A DNA stretch of 38,867 bases. Source: a virus (taxonomy: Duplodnaviria; Heunggongvirae; Uroviricota; Caudoviricetes). Under the pieces are notes generated by a model that had not been told where the DNA came from, made no database searches, and was given only the letters and a program-made list of their open reading frames with translations. The position numbers and the translations under genes are program-made. The stretch spans positions 1 to 38,867 of the IMG/VR virus record IMGVR_UViG_2526164634_000034. The stretch is one strand, 5' to 3'. Of this stretch, positions 9,967 to 33,593 are shown piece by piece. Each line of letters opens with the position of its first letter. Position 1 is the first letter of the stretch.

Positions 9967-11238
9967 TTACGGATTACCGAAGAACTGACCGCCCATGTGA
10001 GGGTTAAAGCACACATATGCAGGCAGTAAGTCGAAACGCATTTTTTGCACGTTGGCATCGCCATCTGCGTATTTATGTACGCGGATGGAGAAACCTTCAT
10101 ATGTTGCAACAGCAGAATCAATACTGTGCAGTTTCGGTAGTGGGATAGAGCCAAGTCCACAGAAGAACTTGTTATAGAACAGGTTTGGCTTCATTGTCTG
10201 GCTAGCAGTGCCTACCACAGATACGGCATCGCCTGCCGCTACCTGACGACTTACAGAGTTGTACTGCGGGTTTGTAGTGTCATAAATCGGAACACCAGAA
10301 AGCGTAACCGTCACATCGCCACTGCTGTCTGAATCAGCATCAGCAGTAACCGTTGCTGTGAAGCTAATTGGTGTGGCTCCGTTATACAACGCCTGTTTGG
10401 TCTGCTGTTGCAGCCAGTAGGTATTGGTGAATTTAACCTGATCACCAGCTTTCAGGAAACCTGTAACGCTGGTTGTCGCTCCGGTCAATGTTACAGTGAA
10501 CTGGTATGAGTCTTTAACTGCGTTATAGGTAACAGTTGGCTGTGTTTTGACTGTCAGTGTTCCGCCAAATGCCCCCTGCGTACGAGAGGCAAGCCCATTA
10601 GATATCAGTGCGCGAATGCCGCCAAAATTGGTTGGGATCTGTGCGTTCTCCCATGCAGTACGAACCAATTGATCTGAAGCATGCAAACCAGTCTGCGCAT
10701 CAGCAAGTCGCTGTGCAGACCATGGATCCATTACAGCATAGTTTTCACCTTCATTAACGCCGAGGTCTTTCAGGAAAGATGCCGTCTGCGCAACATCAGA
10801 CCATTTGGTGATTGGAGTATTGGGGCTACCAAGTGACAACGCACCGTTATTCATCATGAAGTGAGCAAGCTCTGTTTCAAGGTCGGTAACGATTCGCTGG
10901 CGAACCGGCGCGAGAATTTCTTCCAGTTGGTTAAGCTTGATCGCTTCCTCCAGTTGCTGATATTCAACAGCAACAGTGATGTAGTTACCTACACGCCCCG
11001 TAGCTTTACCTGAGATCAGGTTGTTTTTATTTTGCCCTGAAATATCACCAGTGGGAGTACGGAGGGATGAGAATTGATGCGGACGTTTAAAGCTAACGCT
11101 ATCGCCAGTGCTGGAGTTGATTTCACCTGCCAGCAACTGACGGTCTACGGTTTTCGCCAGAACTAAATCTGACATAAAACCCGGAAGGAATTTTTTCAGA
11201 ACGATTTGACTGACGTTACTGTCGAGATTGTTAGGCAT
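9967..11238 (-). CDS. Major capsid (coat) protein, Sf6 type
   Basis: 423 aa beginning MPNNLDSNVSQIVLKKFLPGF...; matches the recalled Sf6 coat protein in length and sequence and is unlike P22 coat. Confidence 0.85.
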   Translation of the reverse strand: MPNNLDSNVSQIVLKKFLPGFMSDLVLAKTVDRQLLAGEINSSTGDSVSFKRPHQFSSLRTPTGDISGQNKNNLISGKATGRVGNYITVAVEYQQLEEAIKLNQLEEILAPVRQRIVTDLETELAHFMMNNGALSLGSPNTPITKWSDVAQTASFLKDLGVNEGENYAVMDPWSAQRLADAQTGLHASDQLVRTAWENAQIPTNFGGIRALISNGLASRTQGAFGGTLTVKTQPTVTYNAVKDSYQFTVTLTGATTSVTGFLKAGDQVKFTNTYWLQQQTKQALYNGATPISFTATVTADADSDSSGDVTVTLSGVPIYDTTNPQYNSVSRQVAAGDAVSVVGTASQTMKPNLFYNKFFCGLGSIPLPKLHSIDSAVATYEGFSIRVHKYADGDANVQKMRFDLLPAYVCFNPHMGGQFFGNP

Positions 11239-11249
11239 TTATCTTTTCC

Positions 11250-12134
11250 TTATTCGATTTTTGCGCCGGGGCATAATTTGTTGAATTCGTCTTGTTTCGC
11301 ATCAGCACCGCCACCACGTACTTCCGGCTCTGGCTTGATGGCTTTCTTTGGTTTTGGAGCAAGGCTTACCTGTTTGCTAATCTGCCCCAAGAGGAATGCT
11401 GCGCGAATTGGATCTGTCTCAGCGGCTACACGCTGGCGTAATTGCTGGCTCTTACCTAAGCCATAGGCGAGTAGTTCAGAGCCTTCGTCTGCACAGTGAA
11501 TGATGATTTCCTGCTGAATTGGTGGTAGCTCACTAAGAACAATGGCCTCCATTTCCTGATAATCTTTCACAGGAAGTTTGGCTGCCCGTTGTTTATGCGC
11601 TTCTACCCTTTGCTGGAAACGCTGTTGGTATTCCTGTTGCTGACGTAGTTTTTGTTGCTGCTGCTGTTCGACACGGCCTTTTTTCTCATGCCAATCAGTC
11701 AATGCCTGTTCAAACGCCTGTTCGTCATAATCACACGACTCAAGAGTCGGTTTTGGTGGAATAGCGTCTGGTTGTGGTTGCTGATGTTCCGCTGGCTTGG
11801 CTAATGCTTCCTCAAGCTGGCGGCGCAACTCACGGTTTTCTTTCTGTGTTTCTTTGAAGCCTTTGCGAAGATCTTTCACCCATTGCGGTGCAGGTTGCCC
11901 GTCAATGTGATCATCATCGTCAGCGTTAAGCTGAATTTCTTCATCACCAATACGCAAGGCGTAATCTTCTGGTGTCTCTTCGGTTTTTTCAGGCTCAGTT
12001 GCCACCTCTTTACCGTTGTCATCCTGGCTTTCATTCTCAGGCTGTGACTCTGTTTGGATGATGGTTTCTTCTGCATTTTCCTGTGTTTCAGACAGGTCAA
12101 TAACCTGACCGTCGATGATCAGTTCGTTTTCCAT
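11250..12134 (-). CDS. Scaffolding protein
   Basis: 294-aa acidic, Gln/Glu-rich helical protein between the portal and coat genes. Confidence 0.75.
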   Translation of the reverse strand: MENELIIDGQVIDLSETQENAEETIIQTESQPENESQDDNGKEVATEPEKTEETPEDYALRIGDEEIQLNADDDDHIDGQPAPQWVKDLRKGFKETQKENRELRRQLEEALAKPAEHQQPQPDAIPPKPTLESCDYDEQAFEQALTDWHEKKGRVEQQQQQKLRQQQEYQQRFQQRVEAHKQRAAKLPVKDYQEMEAIVLSELPPIQQEIIIHCADEGSELLAYGLGKSQQLRQRVAAETDPIRAAFLLGQISKQVSLAPKPKKAIKPEPEVRGGGADAKQDEFNKLCPGAKIE

Positions 12135-12965
12135 TGATTACTCCTGGTTAACTCGGCATTAAGTCTGCCGGTGACTGTGGTGGTGACTGGAATTGCTGTT
12201 GTTGTGACTCGGCGACATCTTTCAGAAGGCGTATTGCCTCCATCACTGCTTTGTCATCGATGTTTCTGGCTTGAGCCAGTTTATAGACAGTGTTTGCCTG
12301 ACTCTCCATCGCATCCTGCTGGGCAGTAAATGCTTTGATTTGAGTTTGAGCAGTTTCGTTAGTTGCTTTTTGCGCTTCTGCCTGCGCTGCTACCATTTGC
12401 GCCTGAGCGAGAACCATTTCAGGATTTGGCTGGCTTTGTGCTGCCATTTGCGCCTGTTGAACAATCTGCTGCTCTTTCTCATTGCGTGGTTTTGCAATAC
12501 CAGATATCAGCAGTTGGTTTCGGTTGTACTCTTTGAAGTCATCAAGGCCTTCGCCATCGATATTGTCCAGAATAATACCCTGAATTGCCGGGCGCATTGG
12601 GTCTGTTGGAAGCATAGAGCTAAGGACATTTGTCAGTACAGAAACCGTTGCATCACGTCGTGCTGTGTAGCTTGGTCCAACATCAACCGTCACATCGTAT
12701 CGACCGACAGAAAGGTCATTTAACGCAACAACAGCCCCTGTTTGCCTGTCAACAACCTGTGCGCTCAGGACAGCGATATCATCACTTCCATCTTCGTTAA
12801 CGATGCGCACTTCACGTTCTGAACCGTACACTTCACGCGCCATTGACAGCCATACTTCACCAGCGCGTTTAAGACTTTTCGCCATATTATCCAGATAGAT
12901 AAACGAAGCCATATCTGCTCTGTTCATCAAGTTGTTAACCGTTTCCTGAGCAATATTACTTGGCA

Positions 12966-14294
12966 CTGAGAGATCCCCTCATAATTTCCCCAAAACGTAA
13001 CCATGTGTGAATAGATTTTGAGTAAGCAGGGTTGCAGCCACGAGTGAGTCTTCCCTTGTTATTGTGTAGCCAGAATGCCGCAAAACTTCCATGCCTAAGC
13101 GAACTGTTGAGAGTACGTTTCGATTTCTGACTGTGTTAGCCTGGAAGTGCTTGTCCCAACCTTGTTTCTGAGCATGAACGCCCGCAAGCCAACATGTTAG
13201 TTGAAGCATCAGGGCGATTAGCAGCATGATATCAAAACGCTCTGAGCTGCTCGTTCGGCTATGGCGTAGGCCTAGTCCGTAGGCAGGACTTTTCAAGTCT
13301 CGGAAGGTTTCTTCAATCTGCATTCGCTTCGAATAGATATTAACAAGTTGTTTGGGTGTTCGAATTTCAACAGGTAAGTTAGTTGCTAGAATCCATGGCT
13401 CCTTTGCCGACGCTGAGTAGATTTTAGGTGACGGGTGGTGACAATGAGTCCGTGTCGAGCGCTGATTTTTTCGGCCTTTAGAGCGAGATTTATACAATAG
13501 AATTTGGCATGAGATTGGATTGCTTTTAGTCAGCCTCTTATAGCCTAAAGTCTTTGAGTGACTAGATGACATATCATGTAAGTTGCTGATAGGTTTCCAG
13601 TTTTCCGCTCCTAGGTCTGCATATTGTACTTTTCCTCTTACTCGACTTAACCAGTACCAACCCAGCTTCTCAACGGATTTATACCATGGCACTTTAAAGC
13701 CAGCATCACTGACAATGAGCGGTGTGGTGTTACTCGGTAGAATGCTCGCAAGGTCGGCTAGAAATTGGTCATGAGCTTTCTTTGAACATTGCTCTGAAAG
13801 CGGGAACGCTTTCTCATAAAGAGTAACAGAACGACCGTGTAGTGCGACTGAAGCTCGCAATACCATAAGCCGTTTTTGCTCACGGATATCAGACCAGTCA
13901 ACAAGTACAATGGGCATCGTATTGCCCGAACAGATAAAGCTAGCATGCCAACGGTATACAGCGAGTCGCTCTTTGTGGAGGTGACGATTACCTAACAATC
14001 GGTCGATTCGTTTGATGTTATGTTTTGTTCTCGCTTTGGTTGGCAGGTTACGGCCAAGTTCGGTAAGAGTGAGAGTTTTACAGTCAAGTAAGGCGTGGCA
14101 AGCCAACGTTAAGCTGTTGAGTCGTTTTAAGTGTAATTCGGGGCAGAATTGGTAAAGAGAGTCGTGTAAAATATCGAGTTCGCACATTTTGTTGTCTGAT
14201 TATTGATTTTTGGCGAAACCATTTGATCATATGACAAGATGTGTATCTACCTTAACTTAATGATTTTGATAAAAATCATTAGGGGATTCATCAG
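12966..14294 (-). mobile_element. IS10 (1329 bp) with 9-bp target-site duplication TACTTGGCA
   Basis: Terminal sequences CTGAGAGATCCCCTCATAATTTCCCC (12966..) and ...AATCATTAGGGGATTCATCAG (..14294); identical 9-bp direct repeats at 12957..12965 and 14295..14303. Confidence 0.95.
12979..14187 (-). CDS. IS10 transposase
   Basis: 402 aa, MCELDILHDSLYQFCPELHLKRLNSLTLACHALLDCK..., matching the recalled IS10 (Tn10) transposase. Confidence 0.95.
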   Translation of the reverse strand: MCELDILHDSLYQFCPELHLKRLNSLTLACHALLDCKTLTLTELGRNLPTKARTKHNIKRIDRLLGNRHLHKERLAVYRWHASFICSGNTMPIVLVDWSDIREQKRLMVLRASVALHGRSVTLYEKAFPLSEQCSKKAHDQFLADLASILPSNTTPLIVSDAGFKVPWYKSVEKLGWYWLSRVRGKVQYADLGAENWKPISNLHDMSSSHSKTLGYKRLTKSNPISCQILLYKSRSKGRKNQRSTRTHCHHPSPKIYSASAKEPWILATNLPVEIRTPKQLVNIYSKRMQIEETFRDLKSPAYGLGLRHSRTSSSERFDIMLLIALMLQLTCWLAGVHAQKQGWDKHFQANTVRNRNVLSTVRLGMEVLRHSGYTITREDSLVAATLLTQNLFTHGYVLGKL

Positions 14295-15614
14295 TACTTG
14301 GCATCTGCTGCATGGCCTGACTGCCGCCTGTAACCTCCTGAATATCAGCACTGGTTTGCTGTAGTAATGCAGCCAATGCCTGATTCATAACCGCAGGCTG
14401 TGTATATCCTGCCGGGGTAGCTCCAGCGATAATGTTGCCAGATTTATCTCTCACTTCGCGCAACGGCAAGAACGCTGGGCGTTTCTTGTTGCGAGCCTCC
14501 CAGTGCTTCTCAAGTCCACGAATTTGCTCCATGCCAACTATAGGGATCTGACCGGGGTCTTGCGCTGCAGTATCAGCCAGCATTGAAACCTGAAGGTTGT
14601 ACAAACGCTGTGGATCCATTGCTTTTGCAATGTGCCCTTCGACACGCTCAATGTCATCAATGAACCAGCGTTTTCCATAAACCGGGATGAGGGGGATATG
14701 CTCACCAGGAATACGTCGAGGTTTCTCAAGGAAACCATCACCATCCACTACGGATACATACACACGACGGCGCTTCACTGAGCGCCTTGCCACTTCCTGA
14801 AATCCAGCTATTGCCAGTTCATCTTCAATATCTTCAACCTGATCACTGTCGTATGTTGCAATCTCTCCAGTGATTGGATGTCGATAACTGATGACGTCAA
14901 CAGACTCTTTACGAACTTCGTAATACTTCGCTATGTAAATAACATCTGCACCAAACCAGTTATATTCCCAACTGGTCATAGACGTTACATCCAGAGAAGT
15001 GGGAGGTTTCTTTCCGTATTCAGCCTCATATTTTTCAGGTGACAACGAATACATACAGAACGCCCACAACGCGTCAGATTTGTCGTACTTCTTAGCGTCA
15101 GGGTCAAACCACACAGAGCGCGACGGGTCGTATATTGGTTCAATAGCAATACGCTGACGATCGTCCATGGGGTCGTATTCATTGACCAGCATCGACGCCA
15201 AACGGAAGCAACCGAAACCACCAGTAGCAGCGTCGTCAAATGCATTATCGCAAGCCTCACCGCCATCAGTTTCTTCGTAGTCAGCACGGAACAGACCATT
15301 TAATTTATTGGCTAACTCTTCGCTTGCCTCTCTGTCACCAGGACGAAACTTAACGGTTATTCTGTTATTGCGGTATTCTGCAATGATGCGGTTAAGTTCA
15401 GTTGCTACCTTATTGATTTCAAACTTAGGATACTTCTCGAACTGCTCATCAAGCTTAGTTCCAGCCGCCGTTGCTCCTTCCCATTGACCTCCGGGGACAC
15501 GAGCAAACCTCGTAGCTTCAATGCACTTTTCGCGCACTTCCTTCTGTGGAGAATAGGCGCGGTCAAACCTGAGCATGATCCGCTCATGTTTTTTCTCTAA
15601 TGTCTCTGCCATGT

Positions 15615-17027
15615 TTACCAACCGGAGGATGAGGGAACGTATATTTCTGTTTCTTCGCGGACCAATGCCGGGAAATGCATACACATCATCAGCGCATCAG
15701 CCAGGTTAGGAGATGGAATACCGAGCTTCTGCTTCATTTCGACCTTAGTCATAAGCTCCAGCTTCCCGTTATTATTGAATTTGCGCTGAATCTGAGTCAG
15801 TTCTGCAAACAGCTTCTCCAGCATCTTCTCGCCTATCGCTTCTTTGTCGAAACTCAGCATGTCGTCGGGGTCTGCATACTCACCGTGAACAACCGCCCGA
15901 TATGTCAGATACAGCCTGTCAGCCAGCGCATAATAGAATTGCGCTCGCTTATTGCGGAATACATCGCCAATAGTGCGAACGTTGTCGCCCTGTACTACTT
16001 CATCAGCCCATGCTCCGGCCTGATACGGCGCATCTTCATCGAATGGCGATTCGCTGCCCTTGAACATCGTGGCGGTGATTTTCTTGCCGGAGAACGCTTC
16101 CGTTGTCTGTCTGCGTAGCCCGGCACCAACACCATCACCATCCCACAGGTAGTGGTCAGCGCCGTCTTCAATCGCCAGAGAAGTAGCCCAGTCAGCACCC
16201 TCGTTGATGTCCATCAGCAGACCTTCGGCAATGCGTTTAACTACCGAACCGTGGCGCGATGCGTAACCTTTAGCATCTGGCCCTGTATCTGACGGGTCAT
16301 GTGCAGAAACAACAGCGCCTTTCGCTTTCCATCCGAGTTTCTTGTGCGCATCGGTTGCGGCTTCAAGCCATTCACGTTTGATGATTGCCATATCACTTGC
16401 GCTTACCGGCTCACCAAGCCAGATGTGACGATACAGTGTCGGGTTTCTGCGTTTACACTCTTCCATCTCCAGACGGAGAACTTCAGGAAAGTGCGGGTTG
16501 TCGGTGTAGTTCACCGTCAGCAGACAAATATCATCAGGAGGGTTTACGACGAATCGCTGATAGGTATCGTCGAGGATGTTTTTCGGGTTAAAGCTCACCC
16601 ATATTTCGGAAAACGGCTTGCGGATTGTTGGGATCAGGATATCCCACGATTCCTTTGTTACCGCTTCCGCTTCTTCCACCCAGCAGATATCAATGCCTTC
16701 GAGCGATTTAATCTTCGTCGGGTTGTTTTTGATGCCGTAGAACATGAACTCAGCATTCGTTCCGAGATGACGAATCATGGAACGCTGAATTTCAAACTCA
16801 GCCGAATACCCTTCACGCTCGATGGTATCTTCAAGCAACCGGATTACCGAATCGCTGATACTGTTTTGCAGTTCACGAGCGCAGAGTATGCGCACAGGCT
16901 GCCGACGCGCCGCTTCAACAAGCAGCCTCGCAATTGCCCATGACTTACCGCTACCTCGACCGCCTTTGGCGACTTTGTAGCGATGCGCCTCAATGAACGG
17001 TTCAAAGATAGGATTAATCGAGGTCAT
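15615..17027 (-). CDS. Terminase large subunit
   Basis: 470 aa (Sf6 gp2 size) with Walker A-like KVAKGGRGSGKS near the N-terminus; stop overlaps the portal start. Confidence 0.9.
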   Translation of the reverse strand: MTSINPIFEPFIEAHRYKVAKGGRGSGKSWAIARLLVEAARRQPVRILCARELQNSISDSVIRLLEDTIEREGYSAEFEIQRSMIRHLGTNAEFMFYGIKNNPTKIKSLEGIDICWVEEAEAVTKESWDILIPTIRKPFSEIWVSFNPKNILDDTYQRFVVNPPDDICLLTVNYTDNPHFPEVLRLEMEECKRRNPTLYRHIWLGEPVSASDMAIIKREWLEAATDAHKKLGWKAKGAVVSAHDPSDTGPDAKGYASRHGSVVKRIAEGLLMDINEGADWATSLAIEDGADHYLWDGDGVGAGLRRQTTEAFSGKKITATMFKGSESPFDEDAPYQAGAWADEVVQGDNVRTIGDVFRNKRAQFYYALADRLYLTYRAVVHGEYADPDDMLSFDKEAIGEKMLEKLFAELTQIQRKFNNNGKLELMTKVEMKQKLGIPSPNLADALMMCMHFPALVREETEIYVPSSSGW

Positions 17028-17449
17028 TTTCCGAATAGAGTGCTCATCGGTGATGTTTCAATCTGAATTGCGCCGCCGTCCTTACCGACAAGCTCGTTAG
17101 TTACCTTGTCGCCATACTTACGGGGATTCATTCGGGCCAGCGCCCATTTGCGGGTATCAACGCGAAGTCTTGCCTTTGCCACCTCAGCAGCATCTGGAAT
17201 CGCAGTGTCAGCAATTTCGAATATCTCTTCGAAAATAGAATCAGCTCGCGCCTCAGTTGCCTTCGCGTACTTGTCTCTAAAGTCGTCATGCTCTGACAGC
17301 CAGCGAAATACAGTAGCCTTTGCTGGCATGCCGGGGCGCTTGCAAACCTTAACCAGACTTTCCCCGGAGGCAAGCAGCGCACAGATATCATCAGCCACCT
17401 CCGGCAGGTAATCCGAAGGGCGACCGACATTCTTTTTCTCAGTCGCCAT
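17024..17449 (-). CDS. Terminase small subunit (Sf6 gp1-like)
   Basis: 141 aa immediately upstream of and overlapping the large terminase. Confidence 0.8.
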   Translation of the reverse strand: MATEKKNVGRPSDYLPEVADDICALLASGESLVKVCKRPGMPAKATVFRWLSEHDDFRDKYAKATEARADSIFEEIFEIADTAIPDAAEVAKARLRVDTRKWALARMNPRKYGDKVTNELVGKDGGAIQIETSPMSTLFGK

Positions 17450-17528
17450 ATTGATTATTTCCCTTCTGCTTGCTTATCCCATTCATCGCGGAATTTGGAT
17501 GGGTTGTCGAAACCTTGAGTTGCCATGT

Positions 17529-17771
17529 TTATGCTCCGGTAGTGAACAGGTCTAACACTTCCTTCGATTTACGCACCGCTTCGATAGTGCGGGTCGTGAT
17601 ATCTGAATTAGCGCCACCTGACTGGAAGTGAATTTTAAATAGCTCAAGCTTCAGCTCGTCAGTGCCAATGAACTGAAATGCTTCTTCTGCGGCTGCGTTC
17701 TGGTTCATGACCAGTTTGTAAATCTCTAACTGGAATTTCTGTTCTTCAGTCATGGGAATAATCTCTGCCAT
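17529..17771 (-). CDS. Hypothetical 80-aa protein
   Basis: ORF with plausible spacing upstream of the packaging genes; no recognisable motif. Confidence 0.4.
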   Translation of the reverse strand: MAEIIPMTEEQKFQLEIYKLVMNQNAAAEEAFQFIGTDELKLELFKIHFQSGGANSDITTRTIEAVRKSKEVLDLFTTGA

Positions 17772-18027
17772 TGTTGGCTCCGTTTATCCGTTAAAAGGGA
17801 TATCAGTTAAGTTATCCCGTGCAGGGTATAAGCCATTGTCGAGACCACTCATTGAATGGCCTCTGCAATAACCGATGTCTTTCCATCAGTCCGCCACCAC
17901 AAAGAATCTTTTTTGCCATAAGGCTGGAGGTTCATCTTTCAGTGGCTGCCAGTGTTATTTCCCCACTTACTGGCTTGGGTTGTTTCGCTGTACTGCCGTA
18001 ATGCAAAAACTGGATTAACCTGCGAAA

Positions 18028-19978: not shown

Positions 19979-20530
19979 GTCTTACCCCCAGAAGGGGATC
20001 TGTTCAAATTAGGAATTATGGATATGGTCGCTTGAACAAATCCGGGTTACGGTTGATTTGTAACGGGTTTGTTCGTGACCGCATTCATGAGCAAATCTGG
20101 CGTGGATTGCGCCAACAATACATGCCGCTCATATCACGAAGCCCAGCCATTGATGCTGGGTTTTCTTTTTTAAAGCGCACTAGACAACCGTATCCACAGA
20201 GTGTCAGCAATGAGTTGGTTAGGTCTAGTTCTTGGTGGAAGTACGCTTTAAAAAATGGGCTGAGGGTTGTAGCCCAAAATACTTAGGGAATGGTAAGGAT
20301 GAACAACGGTTTTGCTCTGGGTGGATTTGGCTGTGGTGGCCGGCGCTGATCTCCGGCTTGTATACAGGCACCTTGTTCTTCCGAAGCTCTCCTGCGCGCA
20401 TCAGCCTGCGCATTCACCACACCGGAAAGAGCACTCAGTTGTACCGGCCAGTTGTGCCACTAAGAAATGCTTTCGCAGACCGTTAAGCTCTTTGCCAGTT
20501 CTTTAATGCTCTTACCTGTTGTGCAGATAT

Positions 20531-20590
20531 AAAAAATCCCGAAACCGTTGTGCAGGCTCTAACTATTACCTGCGAACTGTTTCGGGATTG
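20531..20590 (-). terminator. tR' terminator
   Basis: Minus-strand hairpin CCCGAAACAG...GGTTTCGGG followed by TTTTTTAT. Confidence 0.8.
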
Positions 20591-20722
20591 CATTTTGCAG
20601 ACCTCTCAGCCTGCGATGGTTGGAGTTCCAGACGATACGTCGAAGTGACCAACTAGGCGGAATCGGTAGTAAGCGCCGCCTCTTTTCATCTCACTACCAC
20701 AACGAGCGAATTAACCCATTGT
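20531..20722 (-). ncRNA. Lambda-type 6S RNA (pR' to tR' leader transcript)
   Basis: The sequence between the pR' -10 and the tR' hairpin matches the recalled lambda 6S region; about 192 nt. Confidence 0.65.
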
Positions 20723-20760
20723 TGGGTCAAATTTACCCAACTTTATTCAAAAAGTCAATA
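20722..20760 (-). promoter_or_regulatory. Late promoter pR' with overlapping qut site
   Basis: Minus strand: -35 TTGACT (20753..20758), 17-bp spacer, -10 TAAATT (20730..20735); matches recalled lambda pR'. Confidence 0.8.
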
Positions 20761-20800
20761 TCATGCCGTTAATATGTTGCCATCCGTGGCAATTATGCTG

Positions 20801-21424
20801 CTAACGTGTGACTGCATTCAAAATGTTGTCTGCGATTGACTCTTCCTTGTGGCATTGCACCACCAGAGCGTCATACAGCGGCTTAACAGTGCGTGACCAG
20901 GTGGGTTGGGTAAGGTTTGGGATTAGCATCGTTACAGCGCGATATGCGGCGCTTGCTGGCATCCTTGAATAGCCGACGCCTTTGCATCTTCCGCATTCTT
21001 TCTCAACAACTCTCCCCCACAGCTCTGTTTTTGATATATCAACCGCACGGCCTGTACCGTGGCAATCTCTACATCTTGCGCCCGGCGTCGCGGCACTACG
21101 GCAATAATCCGCATAAGCGAATGTTGCGAGCACTTGCAGTACCTTTGCCTTAGTATTTCCTTCAAGCTTTGCAATGCCACGGTATTTCCCCGATACCTTG
21201 TGTGCAAATTGCATCAGATAGTTGATAGCCTTTTGTTTGTCGTTCTGGCTGAGTTCATGCTTACCGCAGAATGCAGCCATTCCGAATCCAGCTTGTGATT
21301 GCGCCATCCCCATAGCAGCCATCACATCAGTACCTGAAAGAGAGTCAGAAGCCGTAGCCCGTGGTGAGTCGCTCATCATCGGGCTTTTTGGCGAATGAAA
21401 TTTAGCTACGCTTTCGAGTCTCAC
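20801..21424 (-). CDS. Q: Late antiterminator Q
   Basis: 207 aa, [31 protein letters not shown]...; near-identical to recalled lambda Q. Confidence 0.95.
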
Positions 21425-22086
21425 GCGCCTTCTCCCTGTACCTGAATCAATGTGAGGTTTCCGCAGAACACTGCGCCAGTATCGATATACATCTGGTTGG
21501 CAAATTTGAGTGGTTTCACTGCTGGCGTATGACCAAAGATGAACGTGTCCGCGCCTTTGATTTCTTTCACGATCCCGTCTTGTGAGTTGCTGATTCGTTC
21601 GCGGTTCCAGATTACCTGCTGATGATCAACTGGCTTTCCAAACTCGTATTTATCACAAGGATAATCGGCGTGGCAAATGACATATTTTTTATCTTTGCTC
21701 ACCAGTTCGATGATTAACGGAAGTTCTTCTGCTTTATGGGCAAGAACTTTAGCCAGAGTCTCTTTGTCGTAATCGAGATTAAAGAACCAGCCACCGCCAT
21801 TAAGCAGCCAGTGATTAACGTTTCCACGCTCTGATAAGCCATCAATCATCATTTGCTCATGGTTTCCACGCACAGCTCTGAACCAGGGGAATGTGATTAA
21901 TTCCAGACATTCGACGTTCTCTGTACCGCGATCAACCAAATCGCCAACCGAGATGAGCAGGTCTTTTTTGGTGTCGAATCCAATCGTATCCAGTTTGTTC
22001 ATCAGGTTCGTGTAGCATCCGTGCAGGTCGCCAGCTACCCAAATATTTCGGTATTTGCTGCCATCAATTCTTTCGTAGATATTCAT
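21421..22086 (-). CDS. Ser/Thr protein phosphatase (lambda orf221, NinI)
   Basis: 221 aa with metallophosphatase motifs GDLHG, GDLVDRG, GNHE. Confidence 0.9.
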
Positions 22087-22697
22087 GCAGCCTCACTTCT
22101 GCTGTTTCGCAGGTCTTTGAGTTTCTGTTGGTACTCTGCCTTGATCGCCTTGCACTCTTCGACAGTCCAGCGATGGCGGTTATGGTTTGATTCGATTTCG
22201 TCTACTGCTTCCTGCCTGATGCGGCTAATCAGTTCGACGCGATACGGAACGAGATTTCCGCTTTTGTGCTGGTTGCACACCACGCATTGCTTGTGAATAT
22301 TGCGTTCATCAAATCGGAGTTGAGGTGCCGCAGCAGTTGTCCGGTAATGTCCGGCATCCCACTGAGCAGACGTGAGCGTTCCGCACGAGATACATGGTAA
22401 GTCGCGGTCTCTTTCTCTGATGAAGGCGTTTACGGCTTGTTGGGCTTGTTTAATCCAGTAACTGCGGGGCTTTAAGGCGAGTTTTCGAATCTTAAGTTTA
22501 TCTTTCTGTTTCTGCTCCTCTCGTCGTCGTTTCTTCTCTGCTGCTTTTTCCGCTTTTTCGCGTTCTTTACTTCGTCGTTCGAGTGCTATCTTGGTTCCAC
22601 ACTCTGGAGAGCACCACCACTGATTAGCGAATGCAGGGTGAAACCATTCCCGACATTCATCGTTTTTACATCGTCTTCGCGCTGGTTTAGCCATCAT
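22083..22697 (-). CDS. ninG: NinG (Rap) recombination-associated protein
   Basis: 204 aa, Cys-rich N-terminus; matches recalled lambda NinG. Confidence 0.85.
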
Positions 22698-22899
22698 CTT
22701 CTTCCTCGTGCATCGAGCTATTCGAATCGCTCATCAGCTCTGCACAGCAGTGCTCACACACGTGAACTTCCAGCACATGCAGCTTCTGACCGCAATTAGC
22801 GCACGTTAAAGCCCGCTCGACGCTTTCTTGTTCGTAACTTCGATTTGGGTCAATCACCTTGTATTCCTCGCACGATGTCTTAGCCACCGGATATCCCAC
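22687..22899 (-). CDS. ninF: NinF
   Basis: Contains [43 protein letters not shown]..., matching recalled lambda NinF; the exact start is uncertain. Confidence 0.75.
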
Positions 22900-23036
22900 A
22901 GGTGAGCCGTGTAGTTGAAGGTTTTTACGTCAGATTCTTTTGGGATTGGCTTGCGTTTATTTCTGGAGCGTTTCGTTGGAAGGTATTTGCAGTTTTCGCA
23001 GATGATGTCGGTGAAACTTCGTCGTTGTCGCCTCAT
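22854..23036 (-). CDS. ninE: NinE
   Basis: Internal start [51 protein letters not shown]... matches recalled lambda NinE (60 aa). Confidence 0.8.
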
Positions 23037-23587
23037 GTCGCCCTCCTGACGCCCTGCCCGATCGCCATCAATGCCGCTTTGGATACAGTAGTAAACATTC
23101 GTCGAGGACTGATGAACGGTCGCCAAATCAGCAGCATGGAGCCTTTGCTGTTTCCCTTCTTCTCCAGCCCTGTCGATGGTTCGATAAAATTAATCCGTCC
23201 ATCAGTGATAATGCGAACTTCGTCGACACTCTCCAGAGCCTTGCTGAACCATCCGACTGACATATCCTCTGGCACAAGCATCACTACCGTCTGTCGCTGT
23301 TGTATGCACTGCTCAGCGGCTTTTTCCACCCACGGCCTGATATTGCTGTACGGTGGGTTATTCCAGATTGCACCGTGGCTTATCCACTCAGAATTTAGCG
23401 CGTCGTCGGCCTCAGTTAGCCAGTGAGCGCACAGAGCATTTTTGTCGCTCGCAGCTGAATCCAGCCAGAATCCAAACTCAATATCCAGTGCATCAAAAAG
23501 CCAAAGCGGCGTTTGCCAGCAGTCCTTGTCGTGTGATGGCGTATTTGATTTGATAGTCATGCAGCTCTCCCTTTTCGTTGTGACCAT
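23033..23587 (-). CDS. Phage Dam-like DNA N6-adenine methyltransferase
   Basis: 184-aa ORF with the NPPY catalytic motif ([10 protein letters not shown]), in the nin region where orphan phage methyltransferases occur. Confidence 0.7.
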
Positions 23588-24003
23588 TCATACTCTCGCC
23601 AGGAGTCATCACTCCACCGCACGTTGCGCTCTGAGCCGAACCAGAACATGATTTCGATAAGCTCAGTCATGCTGGCCTTCCGCATTTTGCTGGTACGCAC
23701 GCCAAGCATGACAACGCCACCGTCGATACCAGGCACACTTCGTTGCTCCAGTTTTTTGGTCTTAAGCCACAGGGCAGTGAACAGGTCTTTCCAGTCTTCC
23801 GGCGCCAGCCGTTGACCATGCCATAGCACCTGACGCGAAACATCGTTCAGCATCGGCCACATACGGTCATTCTGCGCTTTGCTGCGCTTGGGTTCTTTAA
23901 CGTGGACTTCGTGGGGTGACTTGTCGTCGATGGGTAGTGAGAGAATGGCGTCTATGGCGTTATTTCTGATTGCTTCGTTGCGAAGCAGAAAGGTTTGCTT
24001 CAT
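23557..24003 (-). CDS. ninB: NinB recombination protein
   Basis: Start set to the internal MKQTFLLRNEAIRNNAIDAILSLP...; ...NDVSRQVLWHG...VRWSDD resembles recalled lambda NinB (146 aa). Confidence 0.8.
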   Translation of the reverse strand: MKQTFLLRNEAIRNNAIDAILSLPIDDKSPHEVHVKEPKRSKAQNDRMWPMLNDVSRQVLWHGQRLAPEDWKDLFTALWLKTKKLEQRSVPGIDGGVVMLGVRTSKMRKASMTELIEIMFWFGSERNVRWSDDSWREYEWSQRKGRAA

Positions 24004-24196
24004 CTCCTGCTCTCCGGTTCCATTTTTCAGCCGCCGCAGCAACTGATGGTGCCCATGCCCCCCTGGCTTCACAGAGGTCACATTCTGCATAGCCCCACAC
24101 ATCAATATTTATTCCGGCCTCAACCCACAGACGAGCATTACCGCCGCAAAACGGACATTCTTTTAGCTTTGGCTGGGTTAATGATAGGTCGCTCAT
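23960..24196 (-). CDS. Lar-like restriction alleviation protein (putative)
   Basis: 78 aa from an internal ATG with AAGGAG 6 nt upstream; KECPFCGG ... C..C Cys pattern typical of Lar-family proteins; overlaps the NinB start by 44 nt. Confidence 0.4.
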   Translation of the reverse strand: MSDLSLTQPKLKECPFCGGNARLWVEAGINIDVWGYAECDLCEARGAWAPSVAAAAEKWNRRAGDEANLSASQRSNQK

Positions 24197-24206
24197 GCTC
24201 ACTCCT

Positions 24207-24422
24207 TCACTTAAAATCCAGACTCCGGATAATTCTGTTGCGCTGAAACTCATTGTTGAGTTTGAACAACCGTCGAAGAACACGGTCACGCGGATAGCGT
24301 CGTGCGGCAGGTGAATGCTCATACAACTCATCAAGCGGCAAACTGGACGATGAACGATACCGATACCAACGCACCAACTCTTCACGAAAATTAGCCCTGA
24401 CAAGCTCAGCTATCGTACTCAT
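24207..24422 (-). CDS. Hypothetical 71-aa protein
   Basis: ORF with GGAGG upstream, in the position lambda uses for ren; no similarity to Ren seen. Confidence 0.45.
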   Translation of the reverse strand: MSTIAELVRANFREELVRWYRYRSSSSLPLDELYEHSPAARRYPRDRVLRRLFKLNNEFQRNRIIRSLDFK

Positions 24423-24448
24423 TTCTTAAAGCCTCCAATTACTCTTCC

Positions 24449-24511
24449 TCAAATAAAAAGGCCTGCGATTACCAGCAGGCCTGTTACAAGCTCAGTGATG
24501 TAGATGGTCAT
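24449..24511 (-). CDS. Tiny 20-aa hydrophobic peptide (MTIYITELVTGLLVIAGLFI), speculative
   Basis: ATG overlaps the helicase stop (TGATG) with AGGAGG about 7 nt upstream; not in the ORF track because of its size. Confidence 0.25.
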   Translation of the reverse strand: MTIYITELVTGLLVIAGLFI

Positions 24512-25947
24512 CAGAATCCTCCTTTCTTCTTGGACTGCGGTTCCTCACGTTCACGGCGGCGCATTTCAGCAGACTGTTGGTCTGTGTCATAAATAGCGCC
24601 ATTTGCCTGAATGCAATACACCGTGCCGGTATTGCCATGACGATTGAGACGAAGGATTAGTTCGGTTTCACCAGGTGGAACACTGTCATCAAAAGCACCT
24701 TCACGATGGATCCCCACCCAATAATCGCAATCCTGTTCAATCTGTCCTGTATCGCGCGAGTCACTTGGTAATGGGCGTTTATTGGTTCGGCTTTCCAATG
24801 CGCGGTTAAGCTGTGTCAGAAGCACAACAACGCAATCAAGCTCTTTGGCAAGGTTCTTCAGTCCTTTGGTGATCATGCCGTAAGCAAGGTCGTTGCGATC
24901 GGCCTTCTCAGCGGTCATTAGTGTCAGGTAATCGACCAGAATCATGCCAACACATCCTTTTTCTCGCTTGATTCGACGGCTTTCACTGACGATTTGAGCC
25001 AGAGATAATCCCGGCGTGTCGTCGATGTAAAGCAGGTCGATTTCACTCAAGCGATTTGCTGTTTCGATCGCCCTGTTGAAGTCACCATCGTAATCACCCT
25101 GATAGCCGTCATCAGCGTCATTTGTCGCTGGAAGGTAAAAAATATTTGGGTTAACACCTGACTTCTGCCCTACCAGTTTTTCCAGTATCTGGTCACCGGG
25201 CATTTCAAGGCTGAACATCAGAGCGGGCTTTTTCTCATGCACTGCGCAGTTGATTGCCATCTGGCTGTATAGCGTCGTTTTCCCCATCTTAGGGCGAGCG
25301 CCAATGACAAACAGAGAGCCTTTCACCAGACCTTTCGGTGACAGCATCCTGTCCAGCGATGGGATCCCTGTGCTCATTCCTCGTTGTTCGCCTGACGGGT
25401 CAAATCGCTTCTCAAGGTCGCTAACCCAGTCTTCCATGACCTCACCAAATGAACGAAGGCCGCGACGCGATCCGGTTTTTGCATGGTCTGTCAGTTGCGT
25501 GAAAATCGCCTGAATAGCTTCGTACTTCTGCGTTGCAGTCATTCCGTTGCGGGAATAGAGCAATTCCGTCGCTTCAGTCATGCGGTTGATGGCGTAGCGT
25601 TCCATTGCGGTTTCACGAACCTGCATTGCATAGGCAACGATGTTTGCTGCGCTTGGCGTGTTCTTTGCGATCTCAGAGATATAAGCAAAACCGCCAACAG
25701 ACGCCGTTAACGATTTACGCTCCAGTTCATCGAAAAGCGTCAGGCCATCTACTGGCTTTTGCTCCCGGTGCATTCTGGTTATTTCTTCGAAAAGGATTTT
25801 GTGTGGTCGGCTGTAAAATGAATCGGGCTTCAGCATCGCCAGAACTTTCTGGACGCGCTCACTGCTGTCATCATCCAGAAGCAATCCACCAATCACCGCC
25901 TGCTCTGCCTCGATGCTATGGGGCGGCGCATAAAAATTATCGGTCAT
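24511..25947 (-). CDS. Replicative DNA helicase (DnaB family, P22 gene 12-like)
   Basis: Walker A (GARPKMGKTT) and DnaB-like N-terminal domain; start set to the ATG (MTDNFYAPPHSIEAEQAVIGG) rather than the upstream GTG. Confidence 0.85.
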   Translation of the reverse strand: MTDNFYAPPHSIEAEQAVIGGLLLDDDSSERVQKVLAMLKPDSFYSRPHKILFEEITRMHREQKPVDGLTLFDELERKSLTASVGGFAYISEIAKNTPSAANIVAYAMQVRETAMERYAINRMTEATELLYSRNGMTATQKYEAIQAIFTQLTDHAKTGSRRGLRSFGEVMEDWVSDLEKRFDPSGEQRGMSTGIPSLDRMLSPKGLVKGSLFVIGARPKMGKTTLYSQMAINCAVHEKKPALMFSLEMPGDQILEKLVGQKSGVNPNIFYLPATNDADDGYQGDYDGDFNRAIETANRLSEIDLLYIDDTPGLSLAQIVSESRRIKREKGCVGMILVDYLTLMTAEKADRNDLAYGMITKGLKNLAKELDCVVVLLTQLNRALESRTNKRPLPSDSRDTGQIEQDCDYWVGIHREGAFDDSVPPGETELILRLNRHGNTGTVYCIQANGAIYDTDQQSAEMRRREREEPQSKKKGGF

Positions 25948-26827
25948 CGTGTTCACCCTCACGAACTTTCAGGTAGGTATTATCGTTAAGCAGGAAATCA
26001 AATCCCTTTTTGTGCCAGACGGTTCCGCGCTGATGGTTTGGGCGCTCTTCGAACATCCATCGGCAATTTTCGCCTACGTAGCTCAAATAATTTCTCCAGT
26101 CCTGCATCGTGAAACCATGCCCGTCAAGCTGTCGGGTTATCACTCCGGCTTTGCGCCAGAACGTTCGGATCTGGTTTTTACGCTTGTCATTCAGTGCGCG
26201 GATTCTTGGCGCTTCAGGAAGGATTTCGTGGTAAGCATCGACAACATCCTGACAGCTAACGGAAGGTTTTTTCTTGTCAGACTTTTTGTCTGCTGTGGCA
26301 CTCTCTAATACGTCAGTATTAGAGATATTATTTATATTATTGTTTATGGACAACCGTTGGACAACCGTTGGACAATCTCCGCTGAGAGCCGCGCCATTAC
26401 TGGTGTTTGCGTTGGACAACCGTTGGACAACCGTTGGACAATTTTTTGCCTGAAAATCGTCATATTTAACGATTGTAAACAGGCTAAATTTCTTCCCCAT
26501 CGAGCAAATATTAAGCATACCTTTCGACTCAAAAGTCCGTAATAAGCTCCGAACTTTGTTGTCTGGGATGAATGTTTCTCTGACCAGCGACGGGCGTCCA
26601 GTTATCATCTGACCGCGATCAACAGTTATCGGACCGATATCCGTATTGACGACAGTAGATTCGTGATTAGCCTTGAGGATTAAGTGAAGCCAAAGATGTA
26701 CTGCCTGAGAGTCCTTATAGAGCCTGCTGTCCATAAACTGGCGGTGTATAGAGACATACCCCATACTGGATGCCTCCTGATGTTGTACAGGGTTATGCCT
26801 GTAATCAGCTAACTTAACGACGCCCAT
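25937..26827 (-). CDS. Replication initiator (lambda O / P22 gene 18-like) containing the origin
   Basis: 296 aa; its central region (CPTVVQRLS repeated) is encoded by the iterons; lies immediately upstream of the helicase gene. Confidence 0.8.
   Translation of the reverse strand: MGVVKLADYRHNPVQHQEASSMGYVSIHRQFMDSRLYKDSQAVHLWLHLILKANHESTVVNTDIGPITVDRGQMITGRPSLVRETFIPDNKVRSLLRTFESKGMLNICSMGKKFSLFTIVKYDDFQAKNCPTVVQRLSNANTSNGAALSGDCPTVVQRLSINNNINNISNTDVLESATADKKSDKKKPSVSCQDVVDAYHEILPEAPRIRALNDKRKNQIRTFWRKAGVITRQLDGHGFTMQDWRNYLSYVGENCRWMFEERPNHQRGTVWHKKGFDFLLNDNTYLKVREGEHDDR
26346..26443. repeat. Origin-of-replication iterons with adjacent AT-rich region
   Basis: Two clusters of three 11-bp direct repeats (GGACAACCGTT x2 + GGACAATCTCC at 26348..26380; GTTGGACAACC x2 + GTTGGACAATT at 26411..26443) next to the AT-rich stretch 26310..26345. 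Confidence 0.75.
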
Positions 26828-26975
26828 GCTTCACTCCTGCTTTGGCTAGTCTGTAAACACCAACAAGGCGCTCTGCGAACGCCATGTTATTTGCTGCGGC
26901 TACCACTAATCCCTCAGGTGAATCAGGGTGTCGAATCTCTTCTTTTTCCTGGTATTTCTTACGACGTTTTGTCAT
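26814..26975 (-). CDS. Small basic hypothetical protein (53 aa)
   Basis: ATG at 26975 with AGGAG 5 nt upstream; stop overlaps the initiator start; not in the ORF track (<60 aa). Confidence 0.3.
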   Translation of the reverse strand: MTKRRKKYQEKEEIRHPDSPEGLVVAAANNMAFAERLVGVYRLAKAGVKHGRR

Positions 26976-27009
26976 AATGACTCCTGTGGATTGATCCAGT
27001 CTTTCTACA

Positions 27010-27291
27010 TCAGGCCTCGAAGAATTCGCCGTTCTTCGGGGCTTTTTCTTTTGTCAGGTAATTGGCAAGCCGCTTAGTCAGCTCAGCCATTTCATCGTCT
27101 TCGATTCCGTATTCCAGAACAGCCAGCATCATGCTTACCTGCGAGAAGAAACCATTCTTCCATCGGCTTACCTGATATTCAGGAACCCCCATTGCTCGAG
27201 CGAATGTCTTCTGCCCCATCAGTGCCAGTTTGTTCAGCAAGGCTGACTCGATGCGAGCCGCTTTCTTGCTTTTAGTTGCAATAGTACCCAT
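27010..27291 (-). CDS. cII: CII-like transcriptional activator
   Basis: 93 aa; ...ARIESALLNKLALMG...VSRWK...SMMLAVLEYGIEDDEMAELTK resembles recalled lambda CII. Confidence 0.8.
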   Translation of the reverse strand: MGTIATKSKKAARIESALLNKLALMGQKTFARAMGVPEYQVSRWKNGFFSQVSMMLAVLEYGIEDDEMAELTKRLANYLTKEKAPKNGEFFEA

Positions 27292-27367
27292 AGATAATTT
27301 CCTTAATTATTAGATAGAGTTGGCTTCGCAAAGAAACGCAAAACCATAGAGATTTGTTTCTGGTAAT

Positions 27368-27399
27368 GCCCTTTTTCAGGGCGGGGATGTGTAAGAGCG
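27368..27399 (-). promoter_or_regulatory. nutR (boxA + boxB)
   Basis: Minus strand reads CGCTCTTAC (boxA) then GCCCTGAAAAAGGGC (boxB), matching recalled lambda nutR, between cro and cII. Confidence 0.8.
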
Positions 27400-27407
27400 T
27401 TAATAAC

Positions 27408-27638
27408 TTAAGCGGCCATTAATTCAGGCCAGATGCTTTCCCAATCAACCGGATGAAGGTCTTTGCGAGTCACTTCACCATTGCTGAACTTCTCAATCAG
27501 AACACAAAGTGCTGCGCCCAATTCATGATTACGGCTAAGTGCTTTCCTCAAATAGCCGATAGAAGTTCCGCACTTGGTGGCAAATTCTCTCTGCTCTTCC
27601 AGTGAAAGGGAGTTCAGATACAAGCGGAGTTCTTCCAT
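27408..27638 (-). CDS. cro: Cro-like repressor
   Basis: 76-aa ORF divergent from cI across the operator region; not lambda-type Cro. Confidence 0.7.
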   Translation of the reverse strand: MEELRLYLNSLSLEEQREFATKCGTSIGYLRKALSRNHELGAALCVLIEKFSNGEVTRKDLHPVDWESIWPELMAA

Positions 27639-27672
27639 TTGCTATCTCCTTCCCGTTGTTGAATAAGATGAG

Positions 27673-27728
27673 TTTACCTGTAGGTAAAAAGCAAATCAAT
27701 ACCCATAGGTTATTTACCGGCAGGTAAT
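27673..27728. promoter_or_regulatory. OR operator region (pR/pRM)
   Basis: Three related 16-17-bp near-palindromes: TTTACCTGTAGGTAAAA (27673..27689), AATACCCATAGGTTATT (27698..27714), TTTACCGGCAGGTAAT (27713..27728), between divergent cro and cI. Confidence 0.7.
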
Positions 27729-27746
27729 CAAAGATAGAATTAAATC

Positions 27747-28433
27747 ATGGATAAATACGAACAAAGACGACTAAGGCTGATAGAGATAAGAGACCGATTC
27801 TGTAATGGAAAGGCCTCAGAGTTGGCTCGTCGAATAGAAAGGGAACCATCATACGTTTCCAGAATGCTGTATCCGGAAGGAAAAAGCGGAAAAAAACGCA
27901 TTGCTGACGATATGATGGAGCTAATTGAAAAATCTTTTAATCTCCCACGCGGATGGATGGACATGCTTGCAGATGGTAAAGCTGGAGCTACGGACCATCT
28001 TGAGTTTGCGGGTAACGTTCGTGCGGGTTTTGTTCCGGTAATTGGTGAAGCCGTTTTGGGAGTTGATGGCTCAGTGGATATGATTGAATTCAGATCCGGT
28101 TGGTTAAGCATCTACAGCGGCGATAAAGATGCTTACGGTCTGAAGGTTAAGGGTGACAGCATGTGGCCAAGGATTCAGTCAGGAGAATATGTTGTTATTG
28201 AACCAAATACGCCAGTACATCCAGGTGATGAAGTCTTTGTAAGGACCAAAGACGGTCACAACATGATAAAGATCATGAACAAAACAAGAGACGGTGATTA
28301 TCAGTTTAGTAGCATAAACAGTGATCACCGCCCAATCACTCTTCCTGTTGAAGAAGTTGATAAAATGCATTTTGTTTCAGCTATTGTGAAACACACCAGG
28401 TACGTAGACCAGGACGATCTGCCAAAAGTTTGA
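27747..28433 (+). CDS. cI: CI repressor (HTH plus LexA-like S24 autoprotease domain)
   Basis: 228 aa; C-terminal domain with catalytic Ser (GDSMWP) and downstream Lys; divergent from cro. Confidence 0.9.
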   Translation: MDKYEQRRLRLIEIRDRFCNGKASELARRIEREPSYVSRMLYPEGKSGKKRIADDMMELIEKSFNLPRGWMDMLADGKAGATDHLEFAGNVRAGFVPVIGEAVLGVDGSVDMIEFRSGWLSIYSGDKDAYGLKVKGDSMWPRIQSGEYVVIEPNTPVHPGDEVFVRTKDGHNMIKIMNKTRDGDYQFSSINSDHRPITLPVEEVDKMHFVSAIVKHTRYVDQDDLPKV

Positions 28434-28447
28434 GGATAAAGCAGCAA

Positions 28448-28744
28448 ATGTTTATACCCGGCATAGTAGTCGCTGTTGTAATCATCTGCTTCATATGGGC
28501 AAAGTTATCTCCTGTAAGCTCTAAGCATACAGCTGAACTCATGAGGAAGAAGCATCTTATACATGAGGCAGAATCGATAATTAAAAAGTTCAAAGGCATG
28601 TCATACGACGACATGTCATCAGAGCAGATTGCTATGTATAAATGCGCCATTGAGCGCCTTGACTACTTAAACGGACTCAAACCCAAACACACCCCAGTAG
28701 AATCAAAATTGCCGCAATGGCCAAGCAATCCAAATAGCTTCTGA
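28448..28744 (+). CDS. Small single-pass membrane protein at the rex position (candidate exclusion factor)
   Basis: 98 aa from ATG 28448 (GAGGA upstream; the track ORF begins at TTG 28430); N-terminal transmembrane helix FIPGIVVAVVIICFIWAKL; co-oriented with cI and followed by a terminator. Confidence 0.5.
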   Translation: MFIPGIVVAVVIICFIWAKLSPVSSKHTAELMRKKHLIHEAESIIKKFKGMSYDDMSSEQIAMYKCAIERLDYLNGLKPKHTPVESKLPQWPSNPNSF

Positions 28745-28755
28745 CATCTCCTTTC

Positions 28756-28778
28756 AGCCCGCAAAGCGGGCTTTTTTA
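28756..28778 (+). terminator. Rho-independent terminator ending the cI operon
   Basis: AGCCCGC-AAA-GCGGGCT followed by TTTTTTAT. Confidence 0.7.
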
Positions 28779-28797
28779 TATCAATCCAAAAAATTAA

Positions 28798-28881
28798 TTA
28801 CCTGAAAATTCAAGCAGGTAAACTCTTACATCAATTTTATTTACCTACAGGTATAGACAGCTGTTTTACCTGCAGGTATAT
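28798..28881. promoter_or_regulatory. OL operator region / pL
   Basis: Repeats of the OR-type motif: TTTACCTACAGGTATAG (28838..28856) and TTTTACCTGCAGGTATAT (28864..28881), plus a spaced variant TTACCTGAAAATTCAAGCAGGTAA (28798..28821). Confidence 0.65.
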
Positions 28882-28922
28882 TTTAGGCCATCAGCAGGAC
28901 GCACTAACCACCATGAAGGTGA

Positions 28923-28953
28923 TGCTCTTAAAAATTAAGCCCTGAAGAAGGGC
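28923..28953 (+). promoter_or_regulatory. nutL (boxA + boxB)
   Basis: TGCTCTTAA...GCCCTGAAGAAGGGC; matches recalled lambda nutL with one boxA substitution (T for C). Confidence 0.85.
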
Positions 28954-29221
28954 AGCATTCAAAGCAGAAGGCTTTGGGGTGTGGTGAAGCCAGCTAGTCA
29001 CTGGCAAGTGCTTACCTACTGTTGAGCGGTGAAGCGCTCCCAACGCTAGCAATAGCGTGGACGAGATGGGGAGCCGCGGGCGATAAGGCCGCCATAACGC
29101 GCACGTTGTCGCATGGAAAAATCGCTGGGGTGCCGGTTATACCCATCCGAATGAGACTCAACAAGCTGGAGCTAGACTACCAGCCACCACACCACCAAAG
29201 CTAACTGACAGGAGAATCCAG

Positions 29222-29548
29222 ATGGATGCACAAACACGCCGCCGCGAACGTCGCGCAGAGAAACAGGCTCAATGGAAAGCAGCAAATCCCCTGTTGGTTG
29301 GGGTAAGCGCAAAACCAGTTAACCGCCCTATTCTCTCGCTGAATCGCAAACCGAAATCACGAGTAGAAAGCGCACTGAATCCGATAGACCTTACGGTGCT
29401 GGCTGAATACCACGAACAGATTGAAAACAACCTGCAACGTATTGAGCGCAAGAATCAGCGCACATGGTACAGCAAACCACGCAGTGAAATGGGTGTGACT
29501 TGTGTTGGTCGCCAGAAAATGAAATTAGGCAGCAAACCACTTATTTGA
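29222..29548 (+). CDS. N: Antiterminator N
   Basis: 108 aa, MDAQTRRRERRAEKQAQWKAANPLLVGVSAKPVNRPILSLNRK... with arginine-rich motif; near-identical to recalled lambda N in its N-terminal two thirds. Confidence 0.95.
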   Translation: MDAQTRRRERRAEKQAQWKAANPLLVGVSAKPVNRPILSLNRKPKSRVESALNPIDLTVLAEYHEQIENNLQRIERKNQRTWYSKPRSEMGVTCVGRQKMKLGSKPLI

Positions 29549-29569
29549 GGTGAGGGTAATGACTCCAAC

Positions 29570-30073
29570 TTATTGATAGTGTTTTATGTTCAGATAATGC
29601 CCGATGACTTTGTCATGCAGCTCCACCGATTTTGAGAACGACAGCGACTTCCGTCCCAGCCGTGCCAGGTGCTGCCTCAGATTCAGGTTATGCCGCTCAA
29701 TTCGCTGCGTATATCGCTTGCTGATTACGTGCAGCTTTCCCTTCAGGCGGGATTCATACAGCGGCCAGCCATCCGTCATCCATATCACCACGTCAAAGGG
29801 TGACAGCAGGCTCATAAGACGCCCCAGCGTCGCCATAGTGCGTTCACCGAATACGTGCGCAACAACCGTCTTCCGGAGCCTGTCATACGCGTAAAACAGC
29901 CAGCGCTGGCGCGATTTAGCCCCGACGTATCCCCACTGTTCGTCCATTTCCGCGCAGACGATGACGTCACTGCCCGGCTGTATGCGCGAGGTTACCGACT
30001 GCGGCCTGAGTTTTTTAAATGGCGGAAAATCGTGTTGAGGCCAACGCCCATAATGCGGGCGGTTGCCCGGCAT
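29570..30073 (-). CDS. insB: IS1 transposase InsB
   Basis: 167 aa, [37 protein letters not shown]... Confidence 0.95.
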
Positions 30074-30267
30074 CCAACGCCATTCATGGCCATATCAATG
30101 ATTTTCTGGTGCGTACCGGGTTGAGAAGCGGTGTAAGTGAACTGCAGTTGCCATGTTTTACGGCAGTGAGAGCAGAGATAGCGCTGATGTCCGGCGGTGC
30201 TTTTGCCGTTACGCACCACCCCGTCAGTAGCTGAACAGGAGGGACAGCTGATAGAAACAGAAGCCAC
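29992..30267 (-). CDS. insA: IS1 InsA
   Basis: 91 aa, [40 protein letters not shown]... Confidence 0.95.

Positions 30268-31523: not shown

Positions 31524-33593
<2,070 letters not shown>

Follow-up and report, generated by a model that had tools for sequence, protein, structure and literature searches.

Do two portal-like fragments with a transposase gene between them represent one disrupted gene, and if so, what has become of the phage that carries it? The question is raised by a stretch of tailed-virus DNA (Caudoviricetes; IMG/VR record IMGVR_UViG_2526164634_000034, positions 1 to 38,867), which was analysed over its whole length of 38,867 nucleotides and is referred to here as the window. 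A copy of the insertion sequence (IS) IS10 lies at 12966..14294 of the window, within the portal gene of a prophage related to phage Sf6. From the letters and their open reading frames (ORFs) alone, an earlier sequence-only reading had described the element as a complete and recent insertion from which the portal gene could be exactly restored. The comparisons below make it very probable that the portal of an Sf6-like prophage has been knocked out by a recent insertion of IS10-Left.

The interrupted portal gene

The gene is present in two parts, both on the minus strand. The 5′ fragment (14257..15612) is an ORF of 451 amino acids made up of portal codons 1–439, 12 codons encoded by the IS element (TDESPNDFYQNH) and a stop codon. 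The 3′ fragment (12148..12966) is an ORF of 272 amino acids covering codons 437–708. Both match the Pfam family P22_portal and their matches meet end to end, the first over model positions 2–404 of 594 (E = 3e-118) and the second over 400–594 (E = 3.2e-55). The frame is therefore not uninterrupted: IS10 breaks it after codon 439, and the truncated product retains portal residues 1–439 without the last 269.

Removal of the element and one copy of its target duplication (12966–14303) gives a continuous minus-strand ORF of exactly 708 codons, running from window position 15612 to 12148, as had been claimed. When this joined ORF was translated and aligned to the Sf6 and P22 portals it aligned along its full length. 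It is identical to Sf6 gp3 (PDB 7SFS chain M) at 706 of 708 residues, aligned over 1–708 with a score of 1581 bits, and matches the P22 portal structures with E values of about 1e-94 (3LJ5 is aligned over 6–697 with E = 8e-95). At the nucleotide level the restored gene and Sf6 gene 3 are separated by 11 differences, nine synonymous and two nonsynonymous, with no frameshift and no stop. In Sf6 the duplicated 9-mer is present as a single copy at 3144–3152, and both flanks of the insertion in the window abut at that site. Uninterrupted copies of the restored portal are also found in 220 complete genomes of Escherichia coli (E. coli), the best with 99.9% identity.

The gene neighbourhood is that expected of a portal. 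In the late operon it lies between terL (15615..17027) and the scaffold gene (11250..12134), which is followed by the coat gene (9967..11238), all on the minus strand. The order terS, terL, portal, scaffold, coat is shared with Sf6, whose gene 3 (AF547987.1; PDB 7SFS) likewise encodes 708 amino acids but is not split. The match to Sf6 gp3 and the end-to-end Pfam fragments identify the split gene as the portal, in agreement with the sequence-only reading.

At the junction with the inside end of IS10 the ATG of codon 437 is replaced by an in-frame GTG (12966–12964), with the motif GAGGGG 8 nucleotides upstream inside the element. This GTG explains the C-terminal gene of 272 amino acids given by ORF finders and in the source annotation. 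A start exactly at codon 437, with such a motif ahead of it, also favours a portal that is split but functional, in which residues 1–439 with their 12-residue tail assemble with residues 437–708 translated from the GTG and the prophage remains viable. Promoters that read outward have been described near the inside end of IS10 (PMC11481808), and the break falls in a stretch rich in Gly, Ser and Gln, TGGSQAMQQMPSN, which may be a loop. However, the break lies within the conserved P22_portal core, at about model position 400 of 594, and the N-terminal fragment would bear a foreign tail of 12 residues. We also know of no two-piece portal, which counts against a functional split, and such an arrangement is exceedingly improbable.

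Anatomy and type of the IS10 copy

Between its duplications the element measures exactly 1329 base pairs (bp). It lies on the minus strand with its inside end at 12966, where it begins CTGAGAGATCCCC, and its outside end at 14294, where it finishes GGGGATTCATCAG. The terminal inverted repeats are 23 bp long and imperfect, and begin CTGA; the outside-end repeat (14272..14294) agrees with the inside-end repeat (12966..12988) at 17 of 23 positions. The sole long ORF is the transposase (12979..14187, minus strand), an uninterrupted frame of 402 amino acids that matches DDE_Tnp_1 (PF01609, E = 1.5e-24) and has the orientation of the portal gene and the late operon. On the opposite strand, at 14180..14249, is RNA-OUT, which regulates translation of the transposase as an antisense RNA and reads outward to the outside end. 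It is matched over the full model (RF00240, 1–70) with 97.3 bits, where the gathering score is 41, and is the only Rfam RNA in the whole window. Dam GATC sites have a regulatory role at the outside and inside ends of IS10; here they are found at 14225–14228 (IS position 67–70) and, within the inside-end repeat, at 12972–12975 (IS position 1320–1323). The description of the element as a complete IS10 is thus upheld by its length, ends, terminal repeats, transposase ORF and RNA-OUT.

The element has on either side an identical copy of the 9-mer TACTTGGCA, at 12957..12965 on the left and 14295..14303 on the right, so that the perfect duplications previously described are indeed present. The window contains the 9-mer only three times, where shuffled sequence gives an expectation of 0.34, and a chance match between two given flanking 9-mers has a probability of about 4e-6 (4^-9). 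IS10 made its usual 9-bp target duplication here, spanning portal codons 437–440.

Full-length matches to IS10 at 100% identity are found among plasmid records, including R100, the classical source of Tn10. R100 holds two copies of IS10, one adjoining gltS (= jemA) at 36132–37460 and the other adjoining a tetD-like gene. The window element is identical to the gltS/jemA-side copy (NC_002134.1, 36132–37460) at 1329 of 1329 bases. The tetD-side copy is alike in length and organisation but shares only 1314 of 1329 bases. Six of the 15 differences fall in the first 107 bp, at positions 24, 25, 27, 47, 83 and 107, the last being the base directly ahead of the ATG, and the transposases differ at four residues (V266I, L381S, A389T and A398V).

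Which of the two copies is left and which is right was decided partly from the outside-end sequence of IS10-Right, as we take it to be, and partly from gene order. As the published order of Tn10 is jemA ... tetD, IS10-right (PMC5571418), the gltS/jemA-side copy of R100 is IS10-Left, and the tetD-side copy is IS10-Right, the classical active IS10. By this alignment the window element is of the IS10-Left sequence type (ISVsa5 family in the PGAP annotation). The label IS10-Right, the usual meaning of a generic ‘IS10’, was considered and rejected, since alignment to both R100 copies gives IS10-Left. In comparison with the IS10-Left of Tn10 (R100; IS4-like element ISVsa5 family at NCBI), the window copy has the same 1329 bases, terminal repeats, 402-residue transposase, RNA-OUT and 9-bp duplication, but it is solitary rather than an arm of Tn10 and is located in a late gene of a prophage. 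Many solitary copies of IS10 with 100% identity are present in plasmids and E. coli chromosomes, and solitary insertions of IS10-Left arise in laboratory strains (PMC11481808).

Source record and age of the insertion

The window corresponds to positions 4579–43445 of contig AIHD01000047.1 in NCBI assembly GCA_000250275.2 (window position x is record position 4578 + x), with 100% identity over window 1–17855 and 20334–38867. This is a 67-kb contig from the whole-genome shotgun of a draft E. coli assembly, with chromosome on either side of the prophage, which is bounded by dacD on its tailspike/acyltransferase side and by sbcB on its integrase side. The integrase, just beyond the window, is full length (392 amino acids).

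In two other assemblies this prophage is found with its portal gene unbroken and the 9-mer present once. The empty-site 30-mer is GAGCAATATTACTTGGCATCTGCTGCATGG. After excision of the element the window is identical to GCA_053258055.1 over 12011 of 12011 bases and to contig 93 of Logan ERR180821 over 16488 of 16489, the one difference being at window position 6383. These siblings are the strongest evidence available for a very young insertion, and for excision giving back exactly the natural allele. With 0–1 differences remaining after excision, the insertion is very recent, in a lineage whose other sequenced members keep the gene intact. The recent date given by the sequence-only reading is accordingly borne out by the siblings, by the identity of all 1329 bases of the element and by the perfect duplications.

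The interrupted arrangement was absent from all 5426 complete E. coli genomes examined, and an exact search with a 37-mer across the left junction gave no match in genome_contigs, viral_contigs or metagenome_contigs. An exact-product look-up of the 451-residue truncated portal also gave no record, because the source annotation gives this product a later start (439 amino acids). That the whole insertion is seen in only one deposited assembly would suit an artefact, with IS10 absent from the prophage of the living strain and introduced either by mis-assembly of a repeat or by a hop during laboratory propagation or cloning. Copies of IS10, including IS10-Left, do transpose in laboratory E. coli and enter propagated DNA (PMC11481808; PMC11148124). 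Against this, the source is the shotgun contig described above, with chromosomal sequence on both sides, and a perfect 9-bp duplication is left by real transposition, not by mis-joined contigs. Furthermore, a Logan contig (SRR125865_256) starts 27 bp within the inside end of IS10 and continues for 8.4 kb through the 3′ portal fragment with zero mismatches. As it crosses the inside-end junction, its reads support that junction; SRR125865 may or may not be the read set behind GCA_000250275.2. Two further IS elements with perfect duplications in the same prophage (see below) suggest IS activity in the host, and a hop during storage of the strain would still be a genuine insertion. An artefact is very unlikely.

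Consequences for the phage and other insertions

In the P22 portal, crown residues 495–504 contact the scaffold and are accompanied by a C-terminal barrel (PMC13386823). The 269 residues detached by IS10 include the region matching this crown and barrel. According to P22 genetics, shells can still form without a portal, whereas DNA packaging and tail attachment fail. Without a working dodecameric portal, the coat and scaffold proteins of the prophage could similarly still make shells, but the terminase would have no docking site, so that no DNA would be packaged and no tail attached. Induction would then lead to lysis without infectious particles. As Q-modified RNA polymerase reads through terminators, the late genes downstream of the element would probably still be transcribed after induction, and little polarity from IS10 is expected under Q antitermination. 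A promoter and terminator scan of 12100–14500 found nothing promoter-like and a single weak hairpin resembling a terminator, a lower yield than shuffled sequence gave; the result is uninformative on polarity. Reversion would require the element to excise precisely between the 9-bp repeats, a rare event.

Expression of a working or interfering C-terminal fragment is unlikely. In its most elaborate form, the crown and barrel could be expressed from GTG437 in the uninduced lysogen, driven by the outward promoters described near the inside end, and poison the assembly of the portal ring or ejection proteins of superinfecting Sf6-like phages, making the fragment an accidental defence factor; this is highly improbable.

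Several points weigh against the reading of a recent IS10-Left insertion that inactivates the portal and with it the phage. IS10 prefers targets of the consensus NGCTNAGCN, with the core GCTNAGC. The insertion 9-mer fits this core at only 4 of 6 positions, and 81 of the 2119 9-mers of the restored gene fit it equally well or better, so the target appears to be a permitted site and not a hotspot. The description of the transposase as intact holds for the open frame of 402 amino acids, but the IS10-Left transposase itself is described in the literature as inactive or weakly active (PMC11148124; PMC5571418). This copy may thus have been mobilised by a transposase supplied by a different IS10 within the cell. 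The insertion may have a natural origin or may have arisen during laboratory storage of the isolate. Finally, the loss of virion production is predicted from the portal genetics and the domain map of P22.

All 13 of the other Sf6 head and tail genes have counterparts that align over their full length with the frame unbroken, namely terS, terL, the scaffold and coat genes and the homologues of Sf6 genes 6–13. This bears out the earlier view that the remainder of the morphogenesis module appears intact. The genes for holin, endolysin, Rz/Rz1 and replication likewise have their full length. The prophage is Sf6-like, of the Lederbergvirus type. It is a mosaic relative of Sf6, with about 96–97% identity in the structural genes and differences in the receptor domain of the tailspike, the immunity region and the Q gene.

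The two portal fragments and the transposase are to be read as one disrupted gene, and the prophage is to be scored as unable to make particles despite its seemingly complete gene set. With a familiar element in a familiar gene and a foreseeable knockout effect, the case is one of routine prophage decay by IS insertion. What is added is the IS10-Left identity of the element, the source record, the empty-site siblings that date the event and two further IS insertions. The assemblies with and without the element, 0–1 bases apart over 12–16 kb, provide a ready isogenic test of a portal knockout in an Sf6-like prophage. The locus also gives one more field example of the IS10-Left type, long called defective, as a fresh solitary insertion.

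The two further insertions both lie in the early-left region, outside the morphogenesis module. A complete IS1 of 768 bp (29555–30322) is flanked by a perfect 9-bp duplication, TGAGGTGAG, at 29546–29554 and 30323–30331. The duplication overlaps the stop codon of an N-like antiterminator gene (29222..29548, plus strand), and the IS1 transposase genes oppose the leftward early operon. A complete IS100 of the IS21 family (1954 bp, 31526–33479), encoding istA (340 amino acids) and istB (260 amino acids), has a perfect 5-bp duplication, CTGAT, at 31521–31525 and 33480–33484. The ORF that it interrupts is small, begins at 31437 and belongs to the early-left region; an exact-product look-up of its 34-residue stub gave no record. 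The siblings do not put the three insertions in order, as the product cut short by IS100 is recorded in the source assembly alone.

Comparable events are found in relatives. In a prophage of E. coli strain 600 (NZ_CM167659.1, locus 1501–4963) the same Sf6-type portal gene is split by an independent IS2, a different element at a different position, and RefSeq records it as two partial portal pseudogenes. Phage Sf6 itself carries IS911 in gene 54 (ninG), a dispensable gene, and is viable; the corresponding site (Sf6 32876–34124) is empty in the window at about 22594–22596, where ninG is intact. Related genomes have gathered different IS elements at different sites. Together, the three elements of the window, the IS2 of strain 600 and the IS911 of Sf6 indicate that IS insertions are common in this phage family.

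Three independent IS insertions in one prophage, and an independent IS2 in the same type of portal in strain 600, could be taken as signs of a selected domestication, in which the IS10 insertion was no neutral recent accident but was kept for an advantage that the loss of particle production gives to the host or to the cargo of the prophage, for example the O-antigen acyltransferase. However, induction should still kill the cell, as the genes for replication and lysis are intact, and the host has nothing obvious to gain. The 0–1 substitutions that separate the window from its empty-site siblings leave selection no time to have become visible. Of the 220 complete genomes with this portal, the 25 best-matching include only one with an IS-interrupted copy, which looks like sporadic decay. 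Domestication has only a slight chance of being correct, and a recent knockout by IS10-Left is preferred.

The portal region of one relative (GCA_012807755.1, locus 11840–12871) has a different form. Its called portal is a fusion of 343 amino acids with P22_portal and tail-needle domains. The genes for scaffold, coat and head completion are absent, as though an internal deletion had inactivated the morphogenesis module by another route.

Two tail genes of the window also show mosaicism. The tailspike (41–2026, minus strand), which adjoins the O-antigen acyltransferase gene, has a head-binding domain of the Sf6/P22 type (residues 17–134) joined to a different β-helix receptor domain. Its N-terminal head-binding part is approximately 78% identical to that of Sf6, while the remainder has no sequence match in the PDB. 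Translation probably starts at Met17 (position 1978), and an identical tailspike protein is encoded in at least eight other contigs. The tail-needle gene (6902–7855, minus strand) encodes 317 amino acids, compared with 282 in Sf6, and the two align with only approximately 81% identity and 35 gap positions. As a mosaic variant it is rare, being present in only four contigs of the protein-position index.

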